This document shows, piece by piece, positions 1 through 27,067 of a DNA stretch of 62,468 nucleotides; the first letter of the stretch is position 1; each line of letters opens with the position of its first letter. The translations under genes and the position numbers were made by a program. The notes beneath the pieces were generated by a model. The model worked only from the letters and a program-made list of their open reading frames with translations. It searched no databases and was not told where the DNA came from. The DNA comes from Chloroflexota bacterium (GTDB lineage Bacteria > Chloroflexota > Dehalococcoidia > DSTF01 > RBG-16-68-14). The DNA is taken from assembly GCA_022562155.1 (NCBI GenBank), contig JADFPV010000005.1:1-62468 (forward strand), given 5' to 3'.

Positions 1-171
1 AATCAAAATGAATAGTTCGCCGCCACTACGGGAGTGTGAGATATTCCGCCAGGCGTGAACCTCATGGACGCTGAGAGTTGGCGCATCGATCGCCAGCGCG
101 GGGCCGGCCATCATAAGCGCCGGCAACAGGGCGGCCAGGACCAGGGCGGTTATCTTTGCCAGGCGTTTCAT
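1..171 (-). CDS. Secreted protein, N-terminal part only (runs off window)
   Basis: Manual translation MKRLAKITALVLAALLPALMMAGPALA|IDAPTLSVHEV... has a Sec-type signal peptide ending in ALA; its ATG overlaps the upstream TGA (ATGA). Not in the ORF track. Confidence 0.65.
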   Translation of the reverse strand, partial: MKRLAKITALVLAALLPALMMAGPALAIDAPTLSVHEVHAWRNISHSRSGGELFILI

Positions 172-347
172 TCGTCGGCCTGTTTTTTGGTGGGCGTGAG
201 GATCGCCACCAGTTCAAGCGCCGCCCAGGCGAACGCGACCAGGGCCATGATAAATAGCACGGTGCCCAGGGGCAGGCTTACCGCCATGAATAGCGACCCC
301 AGGTAGATCAGGGCGACGCCGGCCAGGACTAAGAGGGGCGATTGCAT
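168..347 (-). CDS. Small hydrophobic membrane protein (59 aa), possible phage structural/assembly protein
   Basis: Manual translation MQSPLLVLAGVALIYLGSLFMAVSLPLGTVLFIMALVAFAWAALELVAILTPTKKQADE; TAATG coupling to the ATPase and ATGA coupling to the next ORF. Confidence 0.7.
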   Translation of the reverse strand: MQSPLLVLAGVALIYLGSLFMAVSLPLGTVLFIMALVAFAWAALELVAILTPTKKQADE

Positions 348-1303
348 TAGACGCCCGCCCCGGCTCTGATCCTTCCCGCTTCCTCCGGCTGGTCGGCGGC
401 GTATGCGTCCGCCAGGCCGTCAGGGATAAGCCACTCTCTTGATTGGCCGTGCCGGCTATTGACTGACAGGGCGAACCCGTAGAGTTGGAATTCCCGCAGG
501 GCCATCCCGATTTTCGTAGTGGTCACGTTGATGGCCGGTTCCAAGCTCGATAGGTAATACTGGACCGTCCCCGGCCGGACGGCGTTGGTGCCAGTGAGGG
601 CGCAGGAAATCACATATCCCCAGATGGCTTTAGTCTGAGTCAGTTGGGCGATAGCCCGTAGCTCTGAGGCCGTTTGCCGGGCCGATCCAACGGCAACGTA
701 ACGCTTGTGATCGTAGAGATTCATAAAGCGCCAGGCGTTTTTCAGGACCGCCCGACTTGATCGCTGGTGAATCATCGAGTCACGATTCCACGGCGCGCCG
801 ATCCTGATGTGGTGAACCGATTTGCCGGCCGTGGTGGTCTGACATAAAACCTGGTGATCTACCCGGCGCAAGAACCGCCCATTTATCTCGTTAGGGAATT
901 GAGTCGTCGCCACTATCTCAACACCCTGATGGCGCATCTGGATCATTACGCCGATGGTGTCCACTTGCACTGTTGCGCCGGTCCGCAGGTTGTTTAGATA
1001 TTCCTCCAGTTCGTCAAACAGAACGACGCAATTTGAGTAACCGTTATCTCTGAATACCGCCATATCTAATTCGCGCCCGAAGTTCACCGCGCCGTTATGA
1101 AAGAGGGGCACGCCCATCGCGTAGACCTGGGCGACGTGGCTAACCGCTGAGATACTTTTGCCTGATCCTTTCTCTCCGGTGTAGAGAGTGGTCGGCGGAT
1201 TTTCGGCCGGGATCACCGGGCCGCCGTTGTCTTCGATAGCGGCGGCGTGAGACGCCTCAACACTCTCCGGGGTGTAGATGTTGGATTTTTTGCGTCGCGG
1301 CAC
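347..1303 (-). CDS. Zot/pI-like P-loop ATPase (FtsK-HerA superfamily; inovirus morphogenesis type)
   Basis: Walker A GEKGSGKS, Walker B VVLFDE, and Zot-type MRHQGVEIVATTQFP (RHxGxxhxxxTQ). No clear C-terminal TM helix. Confidence 0.75.
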   Translation of the reverse strand: MPRRKKSNIYTPESVEASHAAAIEDNGGPVIPAENPPTTLYTGEKGSGKSISAVSHVAQVYAMGVPLFHNGAVNFGRELDMAVFRDNGYSNCVVLFDELEEYLNNLRTGATVQVDTIGVMIQMRHQGVEIVATTQFPNEINGRFLRRVDHQVLCQTTTAGKSVHHIRIGAPWNRDSMIHQRSSRAVLKNAWRFMNLYDHKRYVAVGSARQTASELRAIAQLTQTKAIWGYVISCALTGTNAVRPGTVQYYLSSLEPAINVTTTKIGMALREFQLYGFALSVNSRHGQSREWLIPDGLADAYAADQPEEAGRIRAGAGV

Positions 1304-1361
1304 CTAGTACTCGTTTCAGATTCGTTACCAGTCGGATTAGAAGTGACACCAGTGTAAACGA

Positions 1362-1393
1362 AGGGAGCGCCCGCAGTTCTGCGGGCGCTCCCT
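1362..1393 (-). terminator. Perfect GC-rich hairpin, probable intrinsic terminator
   Basis: AGGGAGCGCCCGCAG-TT-CTGCGGGCGCTCCCT; followed on the minus strand by TCGTTT, ~30 nt after the stop of 1424..2002. Confidence 0.65.
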
Positions 1394-1423
1394 ATGTTCA
1401 CGGCTGTTAGCTCGCGGGCCTGG

Positions 1424-2002
1424 TCAACCCTCGCGGCCACCTGATCTAATCGCCAGGAACGCCACCGAGCCGGCGAGGCCCAGCCCAAGGTCGCCTAGCG
1501 TGTCCGTGTACGCCGTTGCTAGCTCGGGCGAATTGCGAATAAACGTGACGTACTCCATTAGTTCCCAAAGGATGGCGGTCGTAGCTCCAAACCCGATACC
1601 CAGGAGACCGACGACAAGCGCAGTTAGGTTAGACCAGCGAACCAGCAGCACAAATCCGGCTGTGAGCAAGGCCCAATTCATGAAGTGGTTGGCGTCGTCC
1701 CACCAGCCGATGCTGTCGTAGAGATTCAATGCGTTTCCCACAGTGTCGATGAGGAATGGTGCCGTGATGAGCAGGTCCGCCGCGAAGGGGTAAGGTCGTT
1801 CCCGGGCGAACAGCCACCAGCCGACAGGAACCATCATGGTAGCAAGCGGGTAGGCAATCGCTCGTCCGGTCATCGCCTTGCCGGCAAATTGGGCTAGGTC
1901 AGGGTTCAGCGCCCCGAAGACGAGCAGAGCGACGAGGAGCGCTTTGGCGGCAATGTCAGCGATGAGTCCGACGCGGCTGTACATCGGGTATGAGTGTATC
2001 AA
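1424..2002 (-). CDS. Integral membrane protein (YjdF/DUF2238-like)
   Basis: Several TM segments; motifs LYDSIGWWDDANH, WELMEY, YTDTLGDL. Start uncertain. Confidence 0.7.
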   Translation of the reverse strand: MIHSYPMYSRVGLIADIAAKALLVALLVFGALNPDLAQFAGKAMTGRAIAYPLATMMVPVGWWLFARERPYPFAADLLITAPFLIDTVGNALNLYDSIGWWDDANHFMNWALLTAGFVLLVRWSNLTALVVGLLGIGFGATTAILWELMEYVTFIRNSPELATAYTDTLGDLGLGLAGSVAFLAIRSGGREG

Positions 2003-2033
2003 GGAGACTGCAGCGGCGAAGACCGGTCCGCAA

Positions 2034-2081
2034 TGCTTCCCAAGCAGAGGGTCGCGAGTTCGACTCTCGTCTCCCGCTCCA
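2034..2081 (+). tRNA. tRNA-Gly(CCC) 3' half (att-like)
   Basis: TGCTTCCCAAGCAGAGGGTCGCGAGTTCGACTCTCGTCTCCCGCTCCA: anticodon loop, T arm, acceptor strand and CCA; no D arm upstream. Confidence 0.9.
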
Positions 2082-2528
2082 CCCCAACATCTAATGCTTC
2101 TCTGGTAGCTTGGGTGGCAGAACGGCTAGACTCGCCTGCGCATACCTGCGGTCTTCACAGCTGACATCAACAGTTATGCCGCTGGCTTCGCCGACAGCGA
2201 TAACAGCAAAACAGGCTTCATCGAAAGGCTTCTCGGCGGGATCGAGGATGGTTTCCTCAGCCTCGTCAATGAGGGCTTCCAGTTCGGCCATCGTCTCCGC
2301 TTCCGCGATGACATCAAGTACTTCGTCCCACGCGGCGGGATGTTTGGCTCGTCATTCGCTTCTCTGCGGCGTTGGCGCTGTCCAGGGGCGTGAGGCGTCG
2401 GGCTTCGCCCATGGCACTCTCAGTTTACAGCAGCTAGCAAGGCCCTTCGCTCCTGCTGCCCTCAGTGCTGTAAGATAAGGCCTCAATCGCGCATGGCGCG
2501 CATACGGCTGGTAGGAGGCAGGGCCCGC

Positions 2529-2837
2529 GTGGAACCGCGCATCCAGTACGCCAAGACCGAGGACGGCGTGAGCATTGCCTATGCCAGCGAACGCGAAGGA
2601 ACAACGTTAGTCTATTTGGCCTTCGCCCCGGTATCTCACGTCCAGCGAGGCTTGGATATGTTTCCGAACATTTTCCCGCCGATGACAACGAACTTCCGTC
2701 TTATCCGATTCGACCCCTGTGGCACAGGTCTCTCCGACCGAGGTGAGATCGACTTTTCCATGCAGGCGATGACGCGTGACTTCGACGCCGTTGTCGAGCG
2801 CATTGGCCTCCAGTCGTTTGCCATTGGACGGGGTTAA
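2529..2837 (+). pseudogene. N-terminal fragment of alpha/beta-hydrolase + class III nucleotide cyclase protein
   Basis: GTG after AGGAGG; EPRIQYAKTEDGVSIAY...FDPCGTGLSDR; stops at about the nucleophile elbow. Confidence 0.75.
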
Positions 2838-2943
2838 TAAAGTGTAGTAGCCACTACTTGACCTGACCGACGTGGATTATCCGACATGAATCCACCATCT
2901 ATCATAGGAAGAGAGACCAGCAACAGAAGGAGGGAGAGCGCTA

Positions 2944-3225
2944 ATGGCAGCGTATATAATCTTTGAGGTAGAAGTCACCGACCCGGAGGCGACGGATGAA
3001 TATGCCAAACTTGCTGGCGAGTCCCTGGCACCCTTGCAGGCGAAGCCAATAATTCATGGCGGTATGGTAGAGGTATTGGATGGAGACTGGGAACCCAAGA
3101 CGTTGGTAATGGTGGAATTCGAAAGCATGGAGCAAGCTCGGCAGTGGTACAAGTCGCCAGCATACGCCAAAGCAAAGGATGTTCTTATACCGTACAGCAA
3201 TGTAATCTTGATTGAAGGCGTGTAA
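2944..3225 (+). CDS. DUF1330 domain protein
   Basis: MAAYIIFEVEVTD...LDGDWEPKTLVMVEFESMEQARQWYKSPAY; strong RBS; visibly more AT-rich than its neighbours. Confidence 0.9.
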   Translation: MAAYIIFEVEVTDPEATDEYAKLAGESLAPLQAKPIIHGGMVEVLDGDWEPKTLVMVEFESMEQARQWYKSPAYAKAKDVLIPYSNVILIEGV

Positions 3226-3321
3226 GACACCGGTTGCAAAATTGGGAGCCGTCGCAATACGGGCCAAGAAGCGGGCTTCATTTCTTGCCATTCAACAACC
3301 CACAAAAGAGAAAACCCGCCA

Positions 3322-3525
3322 ATGGAGCAAGACCTCTTCGGTGCCTCCGCGCAGCTCGCCCGGCGCATCTGCGATCACGCGGAGGCGAGGCAGATCCTGG
3401 CCGCGAACGTCGTGCGCGAACTCGCGGCCGGAAAGCAGTTCCTGTTCGCTGATCTGGGCGAAACTGAACTGCGCGGCTTCGAAGACCCGGTCACGCTCTG
3501 GGAGCTACCCTGGCAAGACGGCTAG
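3322..3525 (+). pseudogene. C-terminal fragment of class III adenylate/guanylate cyclase domain
   Basis: DLFGASAQLARRICDHAEARQILAANVVRELAAGK...LRGFEDPVTLWEL matches the cyclase C-terminus. Confidence 0.8.
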
Positions 3526-3873
3526 TTCTACGCCGAAACTCACACCACATAACTGGGCCAGTTTGGGTTGGCTTCTCCCTTCTGAAGCACAGCGCTTAGC
3601 GCGAGATACTCAGAAAGCAGATGGCCACTCGCGCACCAAGCGACTAGGCTCACATTTCCCAGATTAGCCGGATGGGAGCGTCATAATCCGGTAAGAGTAC
3701 TGCCCCACATACCGCTTACACGGGCATCATGGCCAGTGAGTGTGCTAGACTCGCCGTGTTTAGCGGGATCTAGCTCTGGATAACAGACATTTGCGAGGGA
3801 GCGAATGCCAGAGAGGATTTGAGGATGAGATCCATTTGATCGGATAGCACAGGTCACCACACTCGGCTCTGGA

Positions 3874-3915
3874 TTTGGGAACAAGAGGTCCGCGGTTCGA
3901 ATCTGCGCCGTGCGA
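3874..3915 (+). pseudogene. Degenerate tRNA 3' half, probably tRNA-Pro(TGG) att remnant
   Basis: TTTGGGA-ACAAG-AGGTC-CGCGG-TTCGAAT-CTGCG-CCGTGCG-A has correct tRNA arm spacing; no matching 5' half. Confidence 0.6.
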
Positions 3916-3984
3916 TTGTAACAGAGCTGGCTATCTCGCTCCGCCTGCCTCCTGTGGTGAAGCTGTCGGCAGCTGATAACAATC

Positions 3985-4026
3985 CGCTCTAGTGCTCGCT
4001 GTCCCAGCTACGGCGCTCTAGTGCTC
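3985..4026. repeat. 13-bp direct repeat CGCTCTAGTGCTC x2 (3985-3997, 4014-4026)
   Basis: Exact copies with a 29-nt period, ending 9 nt from the tRNA-Gly break core. Confidence 0.8.
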
Positions 4027-4035
4027 ACAGCGCCA

Positions 4036-4075
4036 TGCTTGGGAAGCAGATGCTCTACCACTGAGCTACTCCCGC
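4036..4075 (-). tRNA. tRNA-Gly(CCC) 5' half, broken just after the anticodon loop
   Basis: GCGGGAGTAGCTCAGTGGTAGAGCATCTGCTTCCCAAGCA followed by non-tRNA sequence; GCGGGAG pairs with CTCCCGC at 2071-2077. Confidence 0.9.
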
Positions 4076-4093
4076 TCGGTCACGCGCGACGCC

Positions 4094-4102
4094 ATTGTAG
4101 CA
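4094..4102 (-). promoter_or_regulatory. Extended -10 promoter upstream of the tRNA-Gly 5' half
   Basis: TGCTACAAT (TGnTAcAAT), 18 nt upstream of tRNA position 1. Confidence 0.55.
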
Positions 4103-4116
4103 GAGCGCCAGAGCGG

Positions 4117-4608
4117 TCAGGCGTCTATGTCTTCAGGGCTCTCATGATCGTCGTCGGGTGAGGTCTGCTGGCCAAACAACCTTCGGAAGAGCGGTGGATC
4201 GTCACGGCGGCCAGAGATGTATTCGGAGAACGGTCGCATCTCCAATATCAAAAAGATCAGCACGGCCCCGACTAGCGCCACGAGATAGAGTTCAAGGCCG
4301 ATGAGCACGCCGATTGCGGCCACGGCCCAGATAGTTGCCGCTGTAGTGATGCCTCGAAGATTGCTGCCGTCCCTAAAAATGATGCCAGCGCCGAGAAAGC
4401 CGATGCCTGTAACGATGTTGGCAACCACCCGGTCCATTCCGAGCACTTCGTTCGCCGCGGTGAACATGGCTGCGCCTGCCGCCACGAGGGCCATCGTGCG
4501 CAACCCCGCGACGTACTGGCGGCGGTCGCGCTGCCAGCCGACGACACCGCCGCAGAACGCGGCCAGCAGCACCTTGCCTACGACTTCTGCCTGTTCCGCA
4601 AAATCCAT
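4117..4608 (-). CDS. MgtC/SapB family protein
   Basis: AGLRTMALV, RVVANIVTGIGFLGAGII, GITTAATIW. Confidence 0.92.
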   Translation of the reverse strand: MDFAEQAEVVGKVLLAAFCGGVVGWQRDRRQYVAGLRTMALVAAGAAMFTAANEVLGMDRVVANIVTGIGFLGAGIIFRDGSNLRGITTAATIWAVAAIGVLIGLELYLVALVGAVLIFLILEMRPFSEYISGRRDDPPLFRRLFGQQTSPDDDHESPEDIDA

Positions 4609-4673
4609 AACGAGCTAGCCGCACTCGATGCGGCGCGGCCATTGTAGCATCGACGCCTCAGCGAGGCGTCCGG

Positions 4674-5690
4674 CTACTGGTAGATGACGACTGCGGGTGT
4701 GGGCTTCAGGAAGAGCACGTCTTCCTCTGACATCAGATCCGGGTCGTACTCGAAAAAGAGCTTGATAGCGGCGTGTGCGGCGTAGGGACGGGCCGCAAAC
4801 TCTTCGTAGGTAGCGCGTTTGACCGCTGCCGGTCCGAAGCCGTCCATGTCGATGATCAGCTCGACGCCCGGAAAGTAATCGATTGTGTCGGCCCCGAGGA
4901 GCATCTCATCCAGGAACTGATGCACCATGAGCAGCTTCGGGGGGAGCCGTTCGGCGACCACGAGGTCTTGTAGCATCGTCTGAGCGACCTCGATGTCGGC
5001 AGCGTTCAGGCTGCCGATGATGTCTCCCGGCGCGTATCTGCTGTCGACCGCGAACTCCGGATCGAGGGCGAGGTGAACGTTCGGGCGGCTGAGATAGGGG
5101 AGCACCTTTTCGATCTCATCCGCCACAGAACTTCGGCCGATCTGGAGGTCCAAGAAGAGCAGCATGTCGCGCTCTTCAGTCAGAGCAAGGTAGCGGTCCA
5201 GCGTTTCGTCATCGACGTACTGGAGGTACAGACCGTTGTCAGTTGGGTGGGGTTGAGCCACCGCGTACACCAGATGGATGGCTGGGATCACGTCTAACGG
5301 TCCGTTGAGCTTGTCGTAGCGGGCAGCATGGGTCTCGAGGAGATCGGCTACCGCTTCCAGGTCGTCGCTGCCAAGTATGCCCATCAGTTCGGTATACGGA
5401 TTGCCGTAGTAACTCACGATTTGATGCTGCGACAGAAGGGAGAGGCGCGATGCCAGCACTGCGGTCATGCTAGGAAAGCGCGTGGCCAGGTTCGTCAGCC
5501 ACAGCGGCTCGAGCGGGCGTGGTGGGTCCATGGGCGTCGATGGCAGGGCGACGCGGTCGCTGGCTGTCGTCTGCCGGCTGGTGGCCTCAGCGCTGTTGTC
5601 GGGCGGTACTGCCACCGTGAGCGTCACGAGCGCCACGATCGCGCCGAGCAGCAGGATGGAAAAGCGCCTGTCGGCACTTACTGCAGTCAT
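4674..5690 (-). CDS. Membrane-anchored hypothetical protein (possible glycoside-hydrolase-like fold)
   Basis: N-terminal TM; VSYYGNP, LDLQIGR, HLALDPEF, MVHQF, DMDGFG. Confidence 0.65.
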   Translation of the reverse strand: MTAVSADRRFSILLLGAIVALVTLTVAVPPDNSAEATSRQTTASDRVALPSTPMDPPRPLEPLWLTNLATRFPSMTAVLASRLSLLSQHQIVSYYGNPYTELMGILGSDDLEAVADLLETHAARYDKLNGPLDVIPAIHLVYAVAQPHPTDNGLYLQYVDDETLDRYLALTEERDMLLFLDLQIGRSSVADEIEKVLPYLSRPNVHLALDPEFAVDSRYAPGDIIGSLNAADIEVAQTMLQDLVVAERLPPKLLMVHQFLDEMLLGADTIDYFPGVELIIDMDGFGPAAVKRATYEEFAARPYAAHAAIKLFFEYDPDLMSEEDVLFLKPTPAVVIYQ

Positions 5691-5789
5691 GCTGGTGAAG
5701 TTCCTGTAGGTTACTGGACGCCTGTCCGGCCGAGGTACCTACCACGGTACTTCAGGTCCAGGGGGAAATCGAGCGGTTATGGTGAGGTG

Positions 5790-6611
5790 CTAGAAATTTC
5801 TTGTGTCGCTCGTGCGAGCGAGAAGCGAACCAGCCAGGGCCGTGATCGCGGCGCCTACCATAAAGATGATCCCGTTGCGGATTGGCGCCCAGGCTAGCTC
5901 CTGCCCCAGCTGTAGGAACTCGTGAGAGACGTAGTCATCCGCGCCGTCGGCGGCGACTCGAAACGCGAAGCGGACCGCGACGGCGAAGGCAAGGAATGGC
6001 GCTGACGCAAGCAAGAGGCTAACGCCGACGGCGACGATACGGCCGTATCCTCGTGTGACCGAGGCGAGGGCGACGGCCAGGCCAGCCGCGATAACGCCTA
6101 GAGCAATCGTGAGTCCGTATGAGACCCTATGTGGTGCGGGACGGAGGATGTCGATGCCCCGCCGGAGCGCGCCTTCTGTTGAGAAGAAGCCTTCGTCGCC
6201 TTCGCGCCCCTCAAGCAGTACCGAGGCGCCGTCTTTATGGAGGCGTTCGGCCGCGCGCGCGAGGAGCAACTCTCGGAACTCCGCGCGATCGCCGGCCAAC
6301 ACCTCCTCGGCCGTGAACAGGACCGGCACCGGGAAGTCGGTGAGGGCGACTTGGCCGGTCGTCTCGCTCGCGCGCTCGCGGAGGATCTCGTACTCGGCGT
6401 CGAGGAAGCTATCGACCTCAGTGAGGATCGCGAGGCTCTGGGCGAGGCTCCGCTTTGCGGAGCCCTCCGCGGTGATGTTCGCGAAGGCCAGCGAGCAGAG
6501 CAAGCCGGCTGTGACGAACGCCAGGACGGTTCCCAGCGTCCACTTCGCCCGCCCCGCAGTGTCCTCGTCGCGAAGCTGACGTTCGAGAGAGGACGGCGGC
6601 CCGGGCCTCAT
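5790..6611 (-). CDS. Hypothetical membrane protein
   Basis: About four hydrophobic segments; ATGA-coupled to the RDD gene. Confidence 0.7.
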   Translation of the reverse strand: MRPGPPSSLERQLRDEDTAGRAKWTLGTVLAFVTAGLLCSLAFANITAEGSAKRSLAQSLAILTEVDSFLDAEYEILRERASETTGQVALTDFPVPVLFTAEEVLAGDRAEFRELLLARAAERLHKDGASVLLEGREGDEGFFSTEGALRRGIDILRPAPHRVSYGLTIALGVIAAGLAVALASVTRGYGRIVAVGVSLLLASAPFLAFAVAVRFAFRVAADGADDYVSHEFLQLGQELAWAPIRNGIIFMVGAAITALAGSLLARTSDTRNF

Positions 6612-7225
6612 GCCTGTTCCGCCGCGACGACCCGTGTGCGGGCGAGCCGGTCGTGGACGCCCCGTCGTTCTGAGTCGAGCGCCATCGTCGCGAAACTCAC
6701 GATGGGTACGGCGATACAGAGGAGCACCAGGGCTAGCGTCAGCACCAGAACGCTGCGACTGAGCGTCACGGAGGTGGCGTATGCCGCCAGCAGCGTCCAG
6801 ACAGGGACCAGGAGGGGGTGGTACAAGACGGGGTTAAGGCCGAACCATCGCAGCAGAACCCCGCCTGCAGTCCGGACGCCAGGCCCGACGAACGTCGCCT
6901 TGATGCCGACCACGTACATCCCAATCGATTGCGCGCGCCAGCGGTCCAGCATCAGGTTGAACAGCGACCAAGAGACGAGCGGACCTCCGATAAGGATCGC
7001 GATGAAGGCGTTGTACGCGGCATCGGGCGGGTCATCCTTGCCCCAGTCGCTCGTGAAGAGGAGGACGGCCCCGCCGATCACGAAGAAGATAAGCAGGAAC
7101 ACGAGCAGGACGATCGAATCGATGAGGTACCCCGCGATGCGCGTGCCGAAGCTGGCCGGAGTGCGCGAGGAACTGGACGGCGCCATCGTCGCCTCTCTAG
7201 CACGATATCCAGATGTAGCGACCAT
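6608..7225 (-). CDS. RDD family membrane protein
   Basis: ASFGTRIAGYLID ... RRGVHDRLARTRVV. Confidence 0.85.
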   Translation of the reverse strand: MVATSGYRAREATMAPSSSSRTPASFGTRIAGYLIDSIVLLVFLLIFFVIGGAVLLFTSDWGKDDPPDAAYNAFIAILIGGPLVSWSLFNLMLDRWRAQSIGMYVVGIKATFVGPGVRTAGGVLLRWFGLNPVLYHPLLVPVWTLLAAYATSVTLSRSVLVLTLALVLLCIAVPIVSFATMALDSERRGVHDRLARTRVVAAEQA

Positions 7226-7266
7226 CCGCCGCGATTATAGCACTCGTCTCGGTCGCCGTACGGCGG

Positions 7267-8022
7267 CTACGGCACATCCATCTGGCTAAGCCGCCGGACA
7301 GTGAGGTAGAAGAAGCCAATAGTTACGGCGGCGACGCCTACGAGGGCCGCTGGGAATTCGATTGCGCGGCTGCTGAGATCGGCGAAACTAACGTCGTCGA
7401 GGCCATGCACGAGGCCGAGCGTGTAGCCGCGAACGCTGAGATAGCGGATGCCGCCTAGAAACGAGCTGACCACGCCTTCCCAGAGCACTACGTAGACCAG
7501 CGCATAGGGTAAGGCACGCGTGCTCATGAGGCCTGCCCACGTGAAGAGAGAGGTGTATGCGACGGAGCCAAGGAACAGCGCGAGTCCTATTGCGGCGATG
7601 GCCCGAGGCGTGCTGTCAAACAGGACGATCTTCGATCCGATGGTGCCTGCGCCAAGCCAGGCCGCGATCACGCCGCTCAGCACGATCAGCGGGAGGCCGA
7701 TTGCGAGGGCGGCTGCCAACTTTGCCACTACGATCTGGTAGCGCGGTACAGGCCGCAACGTGAGGTAGTTTAGCGTTTGATCTTCCACCTCGTTGCCAAA
7801 CAGCGCCGTCGCGAGCACCAGGCTGACGATGGGCATGACCCCTCCGATGAGCAGGCCATCCAGGAGTGTGTCTACGAACTCTTCATTCGACGTTTCGTCC
7901 TCGCCTAAGGTGAGCGCAACAAGCACCGCTAGCCCAACTGGCAGCGCGGCCAGGAGCAGCAGCAGCAGCAGCCTCCACTTACCCGTGAGCTGCCTGAGCG
8001 AAAGTCGAAATAGCGCTCCCAT
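7267..8022 (-). CDS. ABC-2 type transporter permease
   Basis: EVEDQTLNYLTLRPVPRYQIVVAK; about 6 TMs. Confidence 0.88.
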   Translation of the reverse strand: MGALFRLSLRQLTGKWRLLLLLLLAALPVGLAVLVALTLGEDETSNEEFVDTLLDGLLIGGVMPIVSLVLATALFGNEVEDQTLNYLTLRPVPRYQIVVAKLAAALAIGLPLIVLSGVIAAWLGAGTIGSKIVLFDSTPRAIAAIGLALFLGSVAYTSLFTWAGLMSTRALPYALVYVVLWEGVVSSFLGGIRYLSVRGYTLGLVHGLDDVSFADLSSRAIEFPAALVGVAAVTIGFFYLTVRRLSQMDVP

Positions 8023-8967
8023 TTAGGCCTCTGCCAGGTAGCCGAAGACGCTCTCCAGCGATTCGTCAAGCGGCTCGACGCGCAAGAGCCGGATACTCTG
8101 TTCCTTCGCAATCTGAGGAATCGAGCGCTGCAACGCTTCTACGTTTCTGCTGAGGACGACAAGTGCGTCCTGATCGACGACGTTCACCGAGTCGACGGCT
8201 TCCAGGCTTATCAAGGCGGCAGCCATCGCTCTGGCGTTGCTCGACACGACGCGCACGTTATAGGGTTGTTCGTCCAGTTTCGCCCTGATGGCGTGGAAAT
8301 CGCCGGAAGCGGCCAGTTTGCCGGCAACCATGAGCAAGATGTTGTCGGCGAGCGTTTCGACCTCGTCCAGGACGTGCGACGAAATCAGGATCGTGCGGCC
8401 TTCGGCTGCTTGCTCGAGCATGAGCTGTTCGAACTCAAGCCGTTGTCGCGGGTCGGTGCCGCTCAGGGGCTCGTCCAGCACGAGTAGTTCTGGTTCGTTG
8501 ACGAGCGCCACCGCCAGCCGCATGCGCTGACGCATCCCTCGTGAGTACGTTCCCAGTGTGCGCCCGGCCACGTCTGAGAGGCCGACCCGTTCGATCGCAA
8601 GACCGACGGCAGCGTCTACGTCGCTCAGTTCGTGCATCTCGGCGGCGAGCGCTACGAACTCGCGCCCCGTGAGGACGTCGTACACGGCTTCCTGTTCCGT
8701 CATCACGCCGACACGGCGGTACAGGTCAGGACTGCTGCGTGGCGGTTGGCCTAAGATTCTGATCGAACCCTCGGAGGGCTTTGCCAGGCCGGTAATCATG
8801 CGCAACAGTGTCGTTTTGCCCGCCCCGTTACTGCCGACCAGCCCCGTGATGCCGGGTAGCACTTGGAAGGAGATGTCGTTGACAGCGACGACGTTGCCAA
8901 ACCACTTCGAGACGTTCTGCACGTCGATCGAAGGTTCGTGGGCCGTGGGCGTGTCGGCGTTTGTCAC
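8023..8967 (-). CDS. ABC transporter ATP-binding protein
   Basis: GSNGAGKTT, YSRGMRQR, LVLDEP; likely GTG start at 8967 overlapping the upstream stop. Confidence 0.93.
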   Translation of the reverse strand: MTNADTPTAHEPSIDVQNVSKWFGNVVAVNDISFQVLPGITGLVGSNGAGKTTLLRMITGLAKPSEGSIRILGQPPRSSPDLYRRVGVMTEQEAVYDVLTGREFVALAAEMHELSDVDAAVGLAIERVGLSDVAGRTLGTYSRGMRQRMRLAVALVNEPELLVLDEPLSGTDPRQRLEFEQLMLEQAAEGRTILISSHVLDEVETLADNILLMVAGKLAASGDFHAIRAKLDEQPYNVRVVSSNARAMAAALISLEAVDSVNVVDQDALVVLSRNVEALQRSIPQIAKEQSIRLLRVEPLDESLESVFGYLAEA

Positions 8968-9896
8968 AGCGCCATCCTCCGGTACTGCCACCAGAGCACA
9001 AGGCCCGGAACGACGGTCAGGATCAGGAGCCACGCGACCGGCACAGCGCTGCTGTGTTCGCGGACCAGTTCGGCAACGTCCGATTCGTTGTCGTCATCGA
9101 AGATGAGGTCGCTGACGTGCAGGGGAACCTCGGGAAGCGATACGAGCGCGAGCCACTTCGCGGCGTCACCAGTCACGGGCTCACATTCGCTCTGGACCGC
9201 CCCGAGCCGGCCGTGCCCGTGGTCTTCGCAAAAGGTGAGAGAGCCGGCTACAACGGGTGTGATGACGAACAGAGCGATGACGATCGCGGCGGCATACGTC
9301 CGCCGGATCGTGAACGTTGATACGGCTAACGGGATTGAGGTCGCGAAGGCGGCGATGGCGGCTCCCACGGCGAGGAGGCGCGGAATATCGAGCCACTGAT
9401 CACGGAGATAGTCAAGCGGCTCATCCGCCGCAAACGTTAGGCCGATAAAGAGGACCACCTGGCCGGCATACACAAGCGCGAGCATAACCGAGAAGAAGGC
9501 GAACCAGCGCCCAATGACGTAATCCGTGGTTGTCAAGGGGCGCACCAGGTAGAGGTCTATCACGCGGTCTCGCCGGTCAGGAATGAGCATCTCGGGCGCC
9601 GTTGTGGCTGAAAACAGCAAGATGACGATGTTGATGATCCAGTAGTAATCTGCGTGCGTTGGGACGTCTTGGAGGATGTCGGCGGTGGAAGCGATGAAGC
9701 TAAACAGGAAGGCAGGCACCATCACCGCGAAGAATAGGAGGCCGGGCAGGACTTTCGATTGCCACCCACGTCCTAATCCGATGGCGGTCCGTACGCCGTT
9801 GACGAACAGAGCCTGCCGCGCTCGCATGCGGCCTTCGCGGGGGCCATCGTAGTGCTGGTACCCCAGATCGAAGACTTCGCCGGTGGCTTCAGTCAT
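8964..9896 (-). CDS. ABC-2 type transporter permease
   Basis: DRRDRVIDLYLVRPLTTTDYVIGRW; multiple TMs. Confidence 0.88.
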   Translation of the reverse strand: MTEATGEVFDLGYQHYDGPREGRMRARQALFVNGVRTAIGLGRGWQSKVLPGLLFFAVMVPAFLFSFIASTADILQDVPTHADYYWIINIVILLFSATTAPEMLIPDRRDRVIDLYLVRPLTTTDYVIGRWFAFFSVMLALVYAGQVVLFIGLTFAADEPLDYLRDQWLDIPRLLAVGAAIAAFATSIPLAVSTFTIRRTYAAAIVIALFVITPVVAGSLTFCEDHGHGRLGAVQSECEPVTGDAAKWLALVSLPEVPLHVSDLIFDDDNESDVAELVREHSSAVPVAWLLILTVVPGLVLWWQYRRMAL

Positions 9897-10797
9897 CGTT
9901 CTGTTTCCTGAAGATGTCTGTCAGGCCTCCGCGCCGGGGCGCCAGGCGATGGAGGCGTACTTCCGTCTCGACGATCGCATCGCGAACGGCGTCATACAGC
10001 TCATCGTTAGCAAGCTCAACGAGAAGCGACTTCCCGTCTTTGCTCGTTTCGATACCGCGATTAGACAGGGCGGTGGCCAGCTTCTCTGCGTCGTCGACTT
10101 CGACAACCAGCGTCGAAGTCTCCCGAGTGAAGCCGGACACGGGGCCTTGCTCCACGACGTGGCCGCCCTCGAGCACGATGAGCCGGTCGCACGTGCGATG
10201 GACGTCGCCCATGAGGTGGGTCGACAGCAGGATGCTGATGCCGGCCTCGCGGCTCGTTCGCCGGATCAGTTCCAGCATCTCTTCTCGGCCCGCCGGATCG
10301 AGGCCGGCGGTGGCCTCGTCCATCAGCACGAGGACAGGATCGTGGACCAGCGCCTGCGCCAGCTTGACGCGCTGCTTCATGCCGGTGGAGTATTCGCTTA
10401 GCGGCCGGTAGCGCTCCTCATGCAGGCCGACGTGGCGGAGGACGTCCGCTGCCCGAATACGCGCGTAATGGGGCGGCAGACCGCTGACCTGGGCCAAATG
10501 GCCGAGGAACTCCGTGGCCGAGATTGCGGGCGGGAGGCAGTCGTGCTCGGGCATGTAACCAAGCCGCCCTCTTGCCTCGAGCGCGTCGTAGGTGGGCATT
10601 CCCAGAACGGTGACCGAGCCTTCCGTCGGCGCGATCAGCCCCAGGAAGAGCTTGATTGCCGTGCTCTTTCCAGCGCCGTTAGGGCCCACCAGGCCGGTAA
10701 CGCCTGCTGTGATCTGGAGATCGACCGATTCGAGGGCGATGATTGAGCCGTAACGCTTCGTCAGGCCCTTCGCTTCAAGGAGCACGGCACCTGCCAT
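9889..10797 (-). CDS. ABC transporter ATP-binding protein
   Basis: GPNGAGKST, YSTGMKQR, VLMDE. Confidence 0.93.
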   Translation of the reverse strand: MAGAVLLEAKGLTKRYGSIIALESVDLQITAGVTGLVGPNGAGKSTAIKLFLGLIAPTEGSVTVLGMPTYDALEARGRLGYMPEHDCLPPAISATEFLGHLAQVSGLPPHYARIRAADVLRHVGLHEERYRPLSEYSTGMKQRVKLAQALVHDPVLVLMDEATAGLDPAGREEMLELIRRTSREAGISILLSTHLMGDVHRTCDRLIVLEGGHVVEQGPVSGFTRETSTLVVEVDDAEKLATALSNRGIETSKDGKSLLVELANDELYDAVRDAIVETEVRLHRLAPRRGGLTDIFRKQNDD

Positions 10798-10870
10798 GCG
10801 GCGAGTATAGCGAGGCTCATGGGTGGGTCAAGAATTAGCTGCCCGTCGAACCGAGCCGCTTGATAGGCCG

Positions 10871-11584
10871 TTATTCGGCGCGCGTCAACGTCATTGAGAG
10901 TCGGTATTCGAAGAGGTCAACGTCCAACAGGCCGGCGGTCGCCGTCCGCAGCTCGGGACTAATCGTTCTGGCCACGATTATAATCCGCACACGCTCTGCG
11001 GAGAAGATCTGCGCAATCCGACCTTGGTAGTAGAGGGCCTGGCCGATCGTGCGCTCGTGACCCTTACTTACCTTCAGCTCGATCACCACTGGCGTCCCGT
11101 CTCGGTCTTTAGCGAGGATATCGATTCGACGTCCCCGGTCGTCTACAGGAAACTCAACCGCCGGATGATCAGGCGCTGCCCATGGTTCCAGTCCATCTTC
11201 TATTAGCCGGAGGTTGCTTGCCAGGTAGTCGCGCAAGTCGGTTTCGTAGGCGAACCTCGTTTCATCCAGATCCTCTTCCTCGATCTCTTCTTCCTCTGGC
11301 GAACCGGAGAGGAACCGTTGATAAATGCTGAGATATCTCTGGATGAGACGCCTACCTGGATCCGTTGCCCCATTGGGCCATTTGTCAGAGACGAATTCAT
11401 CGATTAGGTTCTTGTTCGCCAGCAGGTCCGTCACTTTTCCGCGCTTGAGCGTGGACGTATACGAACCGAGCTGGTCAGTGCTCGTCCTGATCGCGGTAGC
11501 CTCCTCCGCGAGCCCGTGAGCTTCCAGGAAGCTCCACGCACTACGCAAAGGTAAGGCTTCAGGATTGTCCGGTAGAGCTGGCAC
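10871..11584 (-). CDS. NucS-like C-terminal PD-(D/E)xK nuclease domain protein
   Basis: FAYETDLRDYL...RIDILAKD...VVIELK...IGQALYY; unrelated N-terminal domain and acidic linker. Confidence 0.8.
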   Translation of the reverse strand: MPALPDNPEALPLRSAWSFLEAHGLAEEATAIRTSTDQLGSYTSTLKRGKVTDLLANKNLIDEFVSDKWPNGATDPGRRLIQRYLSIYQRFLSGSPEEEEIEEEDLDETRFAYETDLRDYLASNLRLIEDGLEPWAAPDHPAVEFPVDDRGRRIDILAKDRDGTPVVIELKVSKGHERTIGQALYYQGRIAQIFSAERVRIIIVARTISPELRTATAGLLDVDLFEYRLSMTLTRAE

Positions 11585-11621
11585 TTCTCCGGTATTCTAC
11601 TGCACCACCGGCCCACTGTGG

Positions 11622-12119
11622 TTAGGCGTTAGCCCTCGCCAGCGCCTCGTAGAACGCGTCGCTGAAGGCTTGGTGGAACGCCCCAGGCTGGCCGTCCGAG
11701 CACTGGCAGGGCCCGCTCTCGCCTGTGGAGCCTGAGGCGGCAGCGTAGGCTGCCTCGACGCGGTCCTGCTGTTCGTACGCTGGGATCTCAAGGGGATGCC
11801 TTCGTCCTTTTGTCCATCCGCTCAGGACCTTCTGAATGAAGTACCGGACGTAGAACGGTCGAATAAACCAAACGCCGGGCCCGCCCGCGCCCTGCTTGAT
11901 GTGAAACAGCTCGTGGGCGATCAGGGCGACGCCCTGGGCGCTGCACGGGTCGAACTTCTCGTCCGCGAAGTAGATGCGCCTGCCGACGGTGATCGCATGA
12001 GGGTTGCCCGTGGCGTAGAAGGGCAGTCCTTCATGGAAGGACACGGTCCCCATATCGACGTCCGGGTACATGCGCGAGTAGAATCGCTTGAGGCACTCAT
12101 GGAAGCCGAGCCTGGGCAT
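11622..12119 (-). CDS. DUF4157 (HExxH) domain protein
   Basis: AITVGRRIYF...LIAHELFHIKQ...HPLEIPAY. Confidence 0.8.
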   Translation of the reverse strand: MPRLGFHECLKRFYSRMYPDVDMGTVSFHEGLPFYATGNPHAITVGRRIYFADEKFDPCSAQGVALIAHELFHIKQGAGGPGVWFIRPFYVRYFIQKVLSGWTKGRRHPLEIPAYEQQDRVEAAYAAASGSTGESGPCQCSDGQPGAFHQAFSDAFYEALARANA

Positions 12120-26990: not shown

Positions 26991-27067
26991 TGGAGCGGGA
27001 GACGAGAGCCGAACTCGCGACCCCTTCGGCTGCGCTCAGGACAGGCCTCTGCTTGGGAAGCAGATGC
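26991..27067 (-). pseudogene. tRNA-Gly(CCC) 3' portion (att remnant) with a 24-nt REP-like insertion
   Basis: GCATCTGCTTCCCAAGCAGAGG[CCTGTCCTGAGCGCAGCCGAAGGG]GTCGCGAGTTCGGCTCTCGTCTCCCGCTCCA. Confidence 0.88.

Follow-up and report, generated by a model that had tools for sequence, protein, structure and literature searches.

Islands integrated in transfer RNA (tRNA) genes have been collected in the Islander catalogue, which describes 3' and 5' displaced tRNA fragments at the islands and sites centred on the anticodon (PMC4383910). It counts a 3' fragment in 3760 islands, a 5' fragment in 159 and an anticodon-centred site in 2083, and lists only 4 arrays of three or more among 3919 islands. Within the Thermococcales, including Thermococcus, integrases have made inversions between inverted tRNA-derived attachment (att) sites (PMC5495485), and in T. 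kodakarensis an inversion put partial and full copies of tRNA-Arg on opposite strands (PMC9897764). A recombinase-bearing element has scattered a 5' fragment of tRNA-Thr in Caldiarchaeum subterraneum, where the locus is heterogeneous in the population (PMC3293823). Here we describe a tRNA-Gly(CCC) gene observed as two convergent halves, located 2 kb from the end of contig C39 of a marine-sediment Dehalococcoidia metagenome-assembled genome (MAG, G000). The whole of this contig, 62,468 nt, is referred to as the window.

We consider the two halves to be a fixed recombination scar, consisting of att-site relics at a hotspot where islands integrate into tRNA-Gly(CCC), with a probability of roughly 0.6. 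The system is like the Islander tDNA islands in its tyrosine-integrase crossover within the anticodon loop, replacement tRNA part, displaced fragment at the island end and tandem arrays, and the full anatomy of that type is present in two relatives (G002 and G014). The window is unlike those islands in that it regenerates no intact tRNA, the fragment faces the remnant and no integrase lies between the two; the density of fragments is also high, with seven on one strand of a single contig, C92 (PMC4383910). The Thermococcales cases share with our locus an element integrase acting on scattered tRNA-derived sites and tRNA pieces on opposite strands (PMC5495485, PMC9897764), but they are archaeal and their tRNA gene is whole, whereas here the host is a bacterium, the syntenic gene itself is broken and the enzyme is a putative one. 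As in Caldiarchaeum, a mobile element would have separated a 5' tRNA fragment from the rest of its gene; that case is archaeal, linked to intron gain and has the recombinase within a 1.8-kb insert, while the 2-kb segment here has no recombinase (PMC3293823). Short inverted repeats around a segment of about 2 kb are also a property of programmed invertible DNA switches, but no invertase adjoins this locus, its module is not conserved and only one orientation has been seen, and its repeats are att cores common to 11 other sites in the genome (PMC5903667, PMC9881135).

The two halves are as follows.

4075->4036, minus strand: 5' half of tRNA-Gly(CCC), positions 1-40, GCGGGAG..TCTGC-TTCCCAA-GCA, read directly.
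2034-2081, plus strand: 3' half of tRNA-Gly(CCC), positions 28-75 with CCA, TGC-TTCCCAA-GCAGA..CTCCCGC-TCCA, read directly.

Direct reading of both strands confirmed the two convergent halves described in the original prediction, and the core they have in common, TGCTTCCCAAGCA, was exact in inverted order over 13 nt (2034-2046 and 4036-4048, 100% identical), with the whole anticodon loop present in each half. ARAGORN found no tRNA in the unmodified 62,468-nt window, and Rfam gave no match at E<=1 in positions 1-12000. After 2047-4035 had been inverted in silico, c[4001,4075] was called by ARAGORN as a tRNA-Gly(ccc) of 75 nt whose 7-bp acceptor stem is perfectly paired, bearing out the claim that a flip restores a canonical tRNA. 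The sequence of this inverted form was identical to the intact gene of G001 and G002; these and the other G numbers denote relatives of the window's MAG, of which G001 and G002 are congeners and G002 a sister species. The 48-nt 3' fragment thus starts at the anticodon stem-loop and is identical to part of the gene in both congeners, as expected of an att scar. An 8-kb scan gave 18 inverted pairs including a second perfect 13-mer (279-291 and 3052-3064), so the 13-nt inverted repeat alone is not beyond chance; what is beyond chance is the tRNA context of the core and not the repeat itself. The joined flanks had also been said to form a near-perfect palindrome. We counted 9 of 10 pairs, but five of these pairs are the anticodon stem itself, and the 4 of 5 pairs outside the stem have a chance of about p=0.016 by our own arithmetic.

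The MAG (2.77 Mb in 134 contigs, 62.4% GC, 90.9% complete and 2.7% contaminated) contained many further pieces of the same tRNA. Thirteen exact copies of the 13-nt core were observed, compared with 0.07 expected from composition, along with six exact copies of the 48-nt 3' half and nine of a 32-nt piece covering the T arm and acceptor, while the exact 40-nt 5' half was observed only once, in the window. Additional decayed or interrupted copies were found by BLAST on C32, C94, C97, C98 and C102. Similarity between copies was limited to about 50-190 nt on the upstream side and at most about 80 nt on the downstream side. In silico, the lone 5' half would be completed by any one of the six exact 3' halves, and the perfect fit obtained by the flip is therefore not specific to this pair. 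The seven tRNA-Gly(CCC) pieces on C92 lie on one strand between 11646 and 45401 (34 kb), separated by menaquinone-type (men-like) genes, an acyl-CoA dehydrogenase, SDRs and a PPDK-like gene. A scan of the 20 largest open reading frames (ORFs) in this array gave no integrase, and C92 is an unusually long integrase-less island array.

A canonical tRNA-Gly(CCC) was not found in the MAG by ARAGORN, nor was a cognate intact gene present in the window. A tDNA-island att scar would be accompanied by a full cognate tRNA gene on the same replicon, in direct orientation to the fragment; the halves in the window are convergent. The search for a second intact gene, proposed with the original prediction, gave only C92:45327-45401, the sole ARAGORN tRNA-Gly(ccc) of the MAG, in which the 5' acceptor strand is CTGCGAG against the required GCGGGAG and the acceptor stem has two mismatches and one wobble. 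Judged by its sequence, this is probably a nearly full-length att copy (positions 5-75) and not a working gene, although automated annotation would take it for the tRNA-Gly(CCC) of the genome. A tRNA-Gly(UCC) gene is present on C120, and GGG accounts for 15.5% of the glycine codons in long open frames of the MAG. tRNA-Gly(UCC) can read GGG, and the tRNA-Gly(CCC) of E. coli is dispensable. The chromosomal gene in G000 would now be dead, with GGG presumably read by tRNA-Gly(UCC). We also observed a decayed, nearly full-length tRNA-Gly(UCC)-like copy (C120:31750-31830, minus strand) about 9 kb from the real tRNA-Gly(UCC), which suggests that this gene is an integration site as well.

Comparison with relatives placed both halves in a wider context. 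The features immediately around them are as follows.

4076-4110, minus strand: promoter-like upstream region with TGCTACAAT, of the extended -10 type, from reading of the sequence.
4117-4608, minus strand: MgtC-family gene (Pfam).
4674-5690, minus strand: conserved neighbour gene anchoring synteny.
3958-4035, minus strand: Y arm, 78 nt, fused to the 5' half after the anticodon arm, a probable att arm.
1463-2033, minus strand: left flank A, with the beginning of ORF 1424-2002 (a DUF2238-like membrane-protein gene) and 31 nt to the core.
2082-2096, plus strand: element-type downstream flank CCCCAACATCTAATG, 15 nt, which travels with island-borne 3' halves.

An intact tRNA-Gly(ccc) was called by ARAGORN beside the ortholog of ORF 4674-5690 at three of six relatives' loci (G001, G002, G009), no tRNA was called at the remaining three (G012, G007, G008), and four more relatives had an adjacent 5'-half match by BLAST only. 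The intact tRNA at this place in relatives identifies the window's 5' half as the remnant of the syntenic chromosomal gene. Its upstream region was partly as predicted, since TGCTACAAT is in place, ending 18 nt ahead of tRNA G1, and at the equivalent place ahead of intact genes for this tRNA G002, G007 and G012 have TGCTATCAT; a simple sigma-70 scan nevertheless left the promoter at 4076-4110 unflagged. The tRNA of G001 and G002 lies only about 70-80 nt from the conserved neighbour and their MgtC homologues are elsewhere; in the window the MgtC-family gene sits between the 5' half and that neighbour.

Homologues of both junctions were observed in G002, which also holds the intact gene. Flank A was matched at G002:C7:31855-32426 (85% identity over 570 nt), where a decayed core and 3' half come next, and the region upstream of this match is colinear with G000:C92:27176-32951. 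A decayed 5' half joined through the core to the Y arm was found on G002:C5 (95% identity over 84 nt), where 50 of the first 54 nt of Y are identical. These homologues are on different contigs and at least 80 kb apart, with 32 kb and 48 kb of sequence between them and the nearest end of their contig. The presence of both joints in G002 places both joint types before the split of the two species, and their location on separate contigs argues that they were not created by a private 2-kb flip. Positions 1-2033 of the window matched one of 40 relatives (G002 only).

The flanks themselves also point to mobile elements. The CCCCAACATCTAATG flank was observed 3' of 3' halves on C92, C93 and C57 as well as 3' of the intact G002 gene, and positions 2034-2096 matched C92:45354-45417 at 98% over 64 aligned positions. 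The Y arm contains two 13-nt direct repeats, GAGCACTAGAGCG, at 3985-3997 and 4014-4026 on the plus strand, and is probably the att arm of a mobile element; flank A contained no repeated motifs of this kind, and Y did not correspond to a known RNA in the Rfam search of positions 1-12000. The earlier idea that the two non-tRNA flanks together form an attP was retained only for the right flank, a plausible att arm by its repeats, and not for a single joint site. The DUF2238-like assignment of ORF 1424-2002 in the left flank is a weak Pfam match. A further homologue of Y, in G012:C98 (locus L025, about 3795-3965), is fused to a tRNA-Ala(UGC)-like 5' part with a full anticodon arm, and the almost identical anticodon stems of the Ala(UGC) and Gly(CCC) tRNAs suggest that the same recombinase uses both. 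This fusion lies 2.9 kb after a tRNA-Ile(GAT). In all three genomes (G000, G002, G012) Y was observed beside tRNA-Pro(UGG) or a displaced Pro-type 3' half.

An integrase lying between tRNA and fragment was not found in the window but was present in relatives, broken in G002 and intact in G014 and others. On G002:C2 we observed, in order, an intact tRNA, an 8.3-kb island with oxidoreductase-type cargo, a broken integrase and a perfect 48-nt direct repeat that begins at tRNA position 28. This arrangement agrees with the general statement in the original prediction that tRNA-targeting integrases normally restore the tRNA and leave direct repeats. The tyrosine integrase of this island is split over two ORFs (PF00589, 1e-15 and 1e-13), and the arm between its stop codon and the repeat consists of CACCGAA x3 and GGGTTAACAATTA. 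Arms of the same type were found ahead of 3' halves on G000 contigs C50, C93 and C92, and the CACCGAA x3 arm is seen at other copies and not at the halves in the window. Full-length homologues of the integrase were present in G014, G007, G021, G038 and G029 (open frames of 352-381 amino acids, 58-66% identical), and G024 had two integrase matches inside one 653-amino-acid frame. Both G014 and G024 showed the integrase followed by the arm, identity to the tRNA starting at the loop TTCCCAA, and then the 3' half. Complete genomes of the order contained up to 21 paralogous integrase matches in clusters. Examples are G027:C1:543-688 kb and clusters in G024, G033 and G036, with 10-21 matches each, many of them one-stranded within about 150 kb. 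These clustered matches are very long tandem island arrays.

No recombinase was observed in the window (Pfam on 10 ORFs in 168-6611, and PF00589 and PF00239), where the left end of the contig limits the view to 2 kb. PF00589 gave three matches genome-wide, full-length on C114 and C108 and a fragment on C9, and PF00239 gave one serine recombinase, on C85. The best matches in G000 to the island integrase fragment of G002 were those on C114 and C108, at 32% identity; from their size we guess these two to be Xer-like. An island-type integrase cognate to the sites was not found in the MAG by the PF00589 search or by homology to the island integrase. No recombinase was found among the 8 ORFs scanned beside the well-kept Y-type joint in G002:C1.

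Together these observations suggest how the scar may have formed. In this lineage, tyrosine-integrase islands recombine within the 7-nt anticodon loop (TTCCCAA) and bring a replacement 3' half with them, so that the one they displace stays behind after each integration. The 5' half in the window would be the syntenic gene of the ancestor, promoter included, which was severed past the anticodon arm and joined to the Y arm of another element. The 3' half is one of the many island-borne or displaced copies, at an old junction beside the membrane-protein gene. Recombination among the dispersed cores, by an integrase acting in trans or through short homology, may then have given the convergent arrangement. 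That integrases made these joints, and in this order of events, is our inference. The second option offered in the original prediction, a non-restoring integration followed by a larger inversion, comes close to this reading.

Several observations weigh against a fixed scar. Letter for letter, both halves agree with the functional gene in G001 and G002, but their homologues in G002 have decayed; undecayed halves imply that the break is recent, that the halves are kept by selection or that exchange is ongoing. As the MAG has other displaced 3' halves that are just as perfect, the argument from selection is weakened but not removed. We derived no one simple series of events that yields the convergent order. 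The product of a reciprocal exchange might be C92:45327-45401, but the upstream flank there is without similarity to the G002 Y-site. A recombinase able to make the joints was not found in the MAG, which is 91% complete; mobile elements are often left out of bins. Public sequence gave partial support. This evidence consists of assembled contigs, not raw reads, from four public runs (X1-X4), in which uncovered parts are uninformative; the window occurs in runs from marine sediment and from other marine metagenomes, none of them listed as RNA, although X4 may be an RNA run. Contigs bridged the left joint (flank A, core and 14 nt of the 3' half) in X1 (1744-2060, 0 differences), X3 and X4, from two studies, and X1 contigs held 2067-2481 and 3197-3612 without differences. 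No single public contig spanned 2060-2067, leaving the path over the 63-nt repeat 2034-2096 unbridged, and every X1 contig over 4030-4035 had G002-like letters and not those of the window, with a small share of X4 contigs over these positions agreeing with the window. Exact-pattern scans of metagenome and genome contigs for the same joints gave no match, though the window's own genome records were possibly excluded there. The split form thus has partial independent support and the flipped form none in the public contigs.

The gap over the repeat raises the question of whether the contig is misjoined at 2034-2096 or at the 5' half, in which case no single cell would have the convergent pair, though the pieces would still be att relics. 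The MAG is in 134 contigs with the feature 2 kb from a contig end, contig ends are no more than 2.1 kb away from six of the nine exact 32-nt 3' pieces, a clustering that indicates an assembly tangle, and the close match of 2034-2096 to C92 together with the disagreement of X1 at 4030-4035 adds to the concern. We nevertheless regard an assembly chimera as unlikely, given that the left joint is held by contigs from two studies and that both joint types have homologues in G002, which makes such joints biological. The repeats are also shorter than a usual read, so that paired 150-nt reads should span them, and a plus-strand 3' half would still face the minus-strand 5' half even if partners were swapped at the 63-nt repeat. 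Another alternative is an active, inversion-controlled tRNA gene, the first option of the original prediction, in which a recombinase from elsewhere would invert 2047-4035 in a population with both broken and intact genes. Exact inverted cores do bound the segment (13 nt, 100%), the flip yields a perfect tRNA, the halves are undecayed and the promoter kept, the inversion of DNA that lies between two inverted tRNA sites is within the reach of tyrosine integrases (PMC5495485), and the tRNA-Gly(UCC) on C120 would make the loss tolerable. The perfect fit is however not specific, as the 3' half is one of at least six identical copies. No recombinase was found in the window, and none of the island type in the MAG; the joint homologues in G002 are decayed and far apart, and no conserved module was found in close relatives; and the segment holds gene debris without regulated cargo. 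A strand-changing joint between the cores at 2046 and 4035 was not observed in the assembled contigs of the four public runs, which drop rare forms. On this evidence the switch is not supported, and we think it very improbable.

Two other readings concern what the halves might do. In a true split tRNA, as in Nanoarchaeum, the halves would be transcribed apart and joined or paired in trans. The 5' half does retain a promoter-like site, and relatives repeatedly show 5' halves that carry a promoter and are fused to Y-type arms. The known split tRNAs call for an archaeal host with the splicing endonuclease pathway, and G000 is bacterial by its tmRNA and by its closest named records, which are Dehalococcoidia/Chloroflexota MAGs; the nucleotides trailing the 5' half and those leading into the 3' half pair at only 4 of the 5 positions next to the core and lack a long GC-rich complement; the simple sigma-70 scan gave no promoter-like site ahead of the 3' half; and a whole anticodon loop in both halves is what crossover sites, unlike splice sites, typically show. 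We give this reading almost no weight. It is also conceivable, though we hold it to be a long shot, that the tRNA-Gly(CCC) anticodon arm is a genome-wide recombination hub in this Dehalococcoidia lineage, where integrases acting in trans shuffle 5' halves with a promoter and the many 3' halves and the gene is repeatedly broken and re-formed. If this were true, the letter-perfect halves and 3' copies would reflect ongoing exchange and not a recent accident, and cells with and without tRNA-Gly(CCC) would occur in one population, making this a phase-variable tRNA.

The segment between the cores and the remainder of the window contained the following features.

2493-2837, plus strand: N-terminal fragment of an alpha/beta-hydrolase (Pfam).
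2944-3225, plus strand: DUF1330 gene, whole (Pfam).
3322-3525, plus strand: C-terminal fragment of a cyclase (Pfam).
3837-3915, plus strand: 3' half displaced from a tRNA-Pro(UGG)-like gene and joined to a conserved element arm; an att scar of another kind.
3640->3553, minus strand: decayed anticodon arm joined to a 'Y2' arm (TATCTCGCGCTAAGCGCTGTGC...).
347-1303, minus strand: Zot-like P-loop ATPase (PF05707 1e-5, phrog_197 2e-5).
26991-27067, minus strand: tRNA-Gly(CCC)-derived piece that runs from position 26 through CCA and whose variable region has a 23-nt insertion.

The segment has a GC content of 51-60%, compared with 62.4% for the genome, and the stretch 2493-3525 is island debris without regulated cargo. 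The Pro-type scar has counterparts at G002:C5:46245-46313 and G012:C98 (about 3968-4060); among the three genomes its T stems vary by compensating changes while the arm is conserved, and tRNA-Pro(UGG) was not in the ARAGORN list for the MAG. Cross-recombination between Gly and Pro sites was considered, as the reverse complement of the tRNA-Pro(UGG) loop shares TTCCCAA, yet no hybrid joints were found in the MAG or at the relatives' loci and the idea was dropped. Copies of Y2 were found on C98 and C94 of G000 and in G012:C46, G012:C65 and G002:C1. At the left end of the window, two small membrane ORFs (1-347) lie beside the Zot-like ATPase and a palindrome with 23-nt arms (1354-1401) follows the ATPase region. 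Positions 1-1401 look like the edge of a filamentous-phage-like element, for which no counterpart was found among the 40 relatives searched. The 23-nt insertion of the piece at 26991-27067, CCTGTCCTGAGCGCAGCCGAAGG, was also observed in C92:13273-13346, C32:20917, C92:24674-24788 and C102:18148 and 26787, with some of these pieces carrying additional hairpin insertions, one within the T loop. The insertion could represent either a variant att arm or a small element that has inserted there, and recombination of such an arm into the gene would give a tRNA-Gly with a long variable arm.

An inversion-controlled tRNA gene would have been new, and the evidence points to an ordinary cause. The system is of a known kind; what is worth noting is the dense array of fragments and the loss of the chromosomal gene. 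The locus is a clear and unusually dense example of anticodon-loop integrases scattering tRNA halves, and it indicates that recombination among such sites can kill the chromosomal tRNA gene itself. It also carries a warning for annotation, as fitting halves are expected by chance once a genome has many identical 3' halves. For the marine Dehalococcoidia, these observations mark tRNA-Gly(CCC) as a main gateway for island gain and rearrangement.

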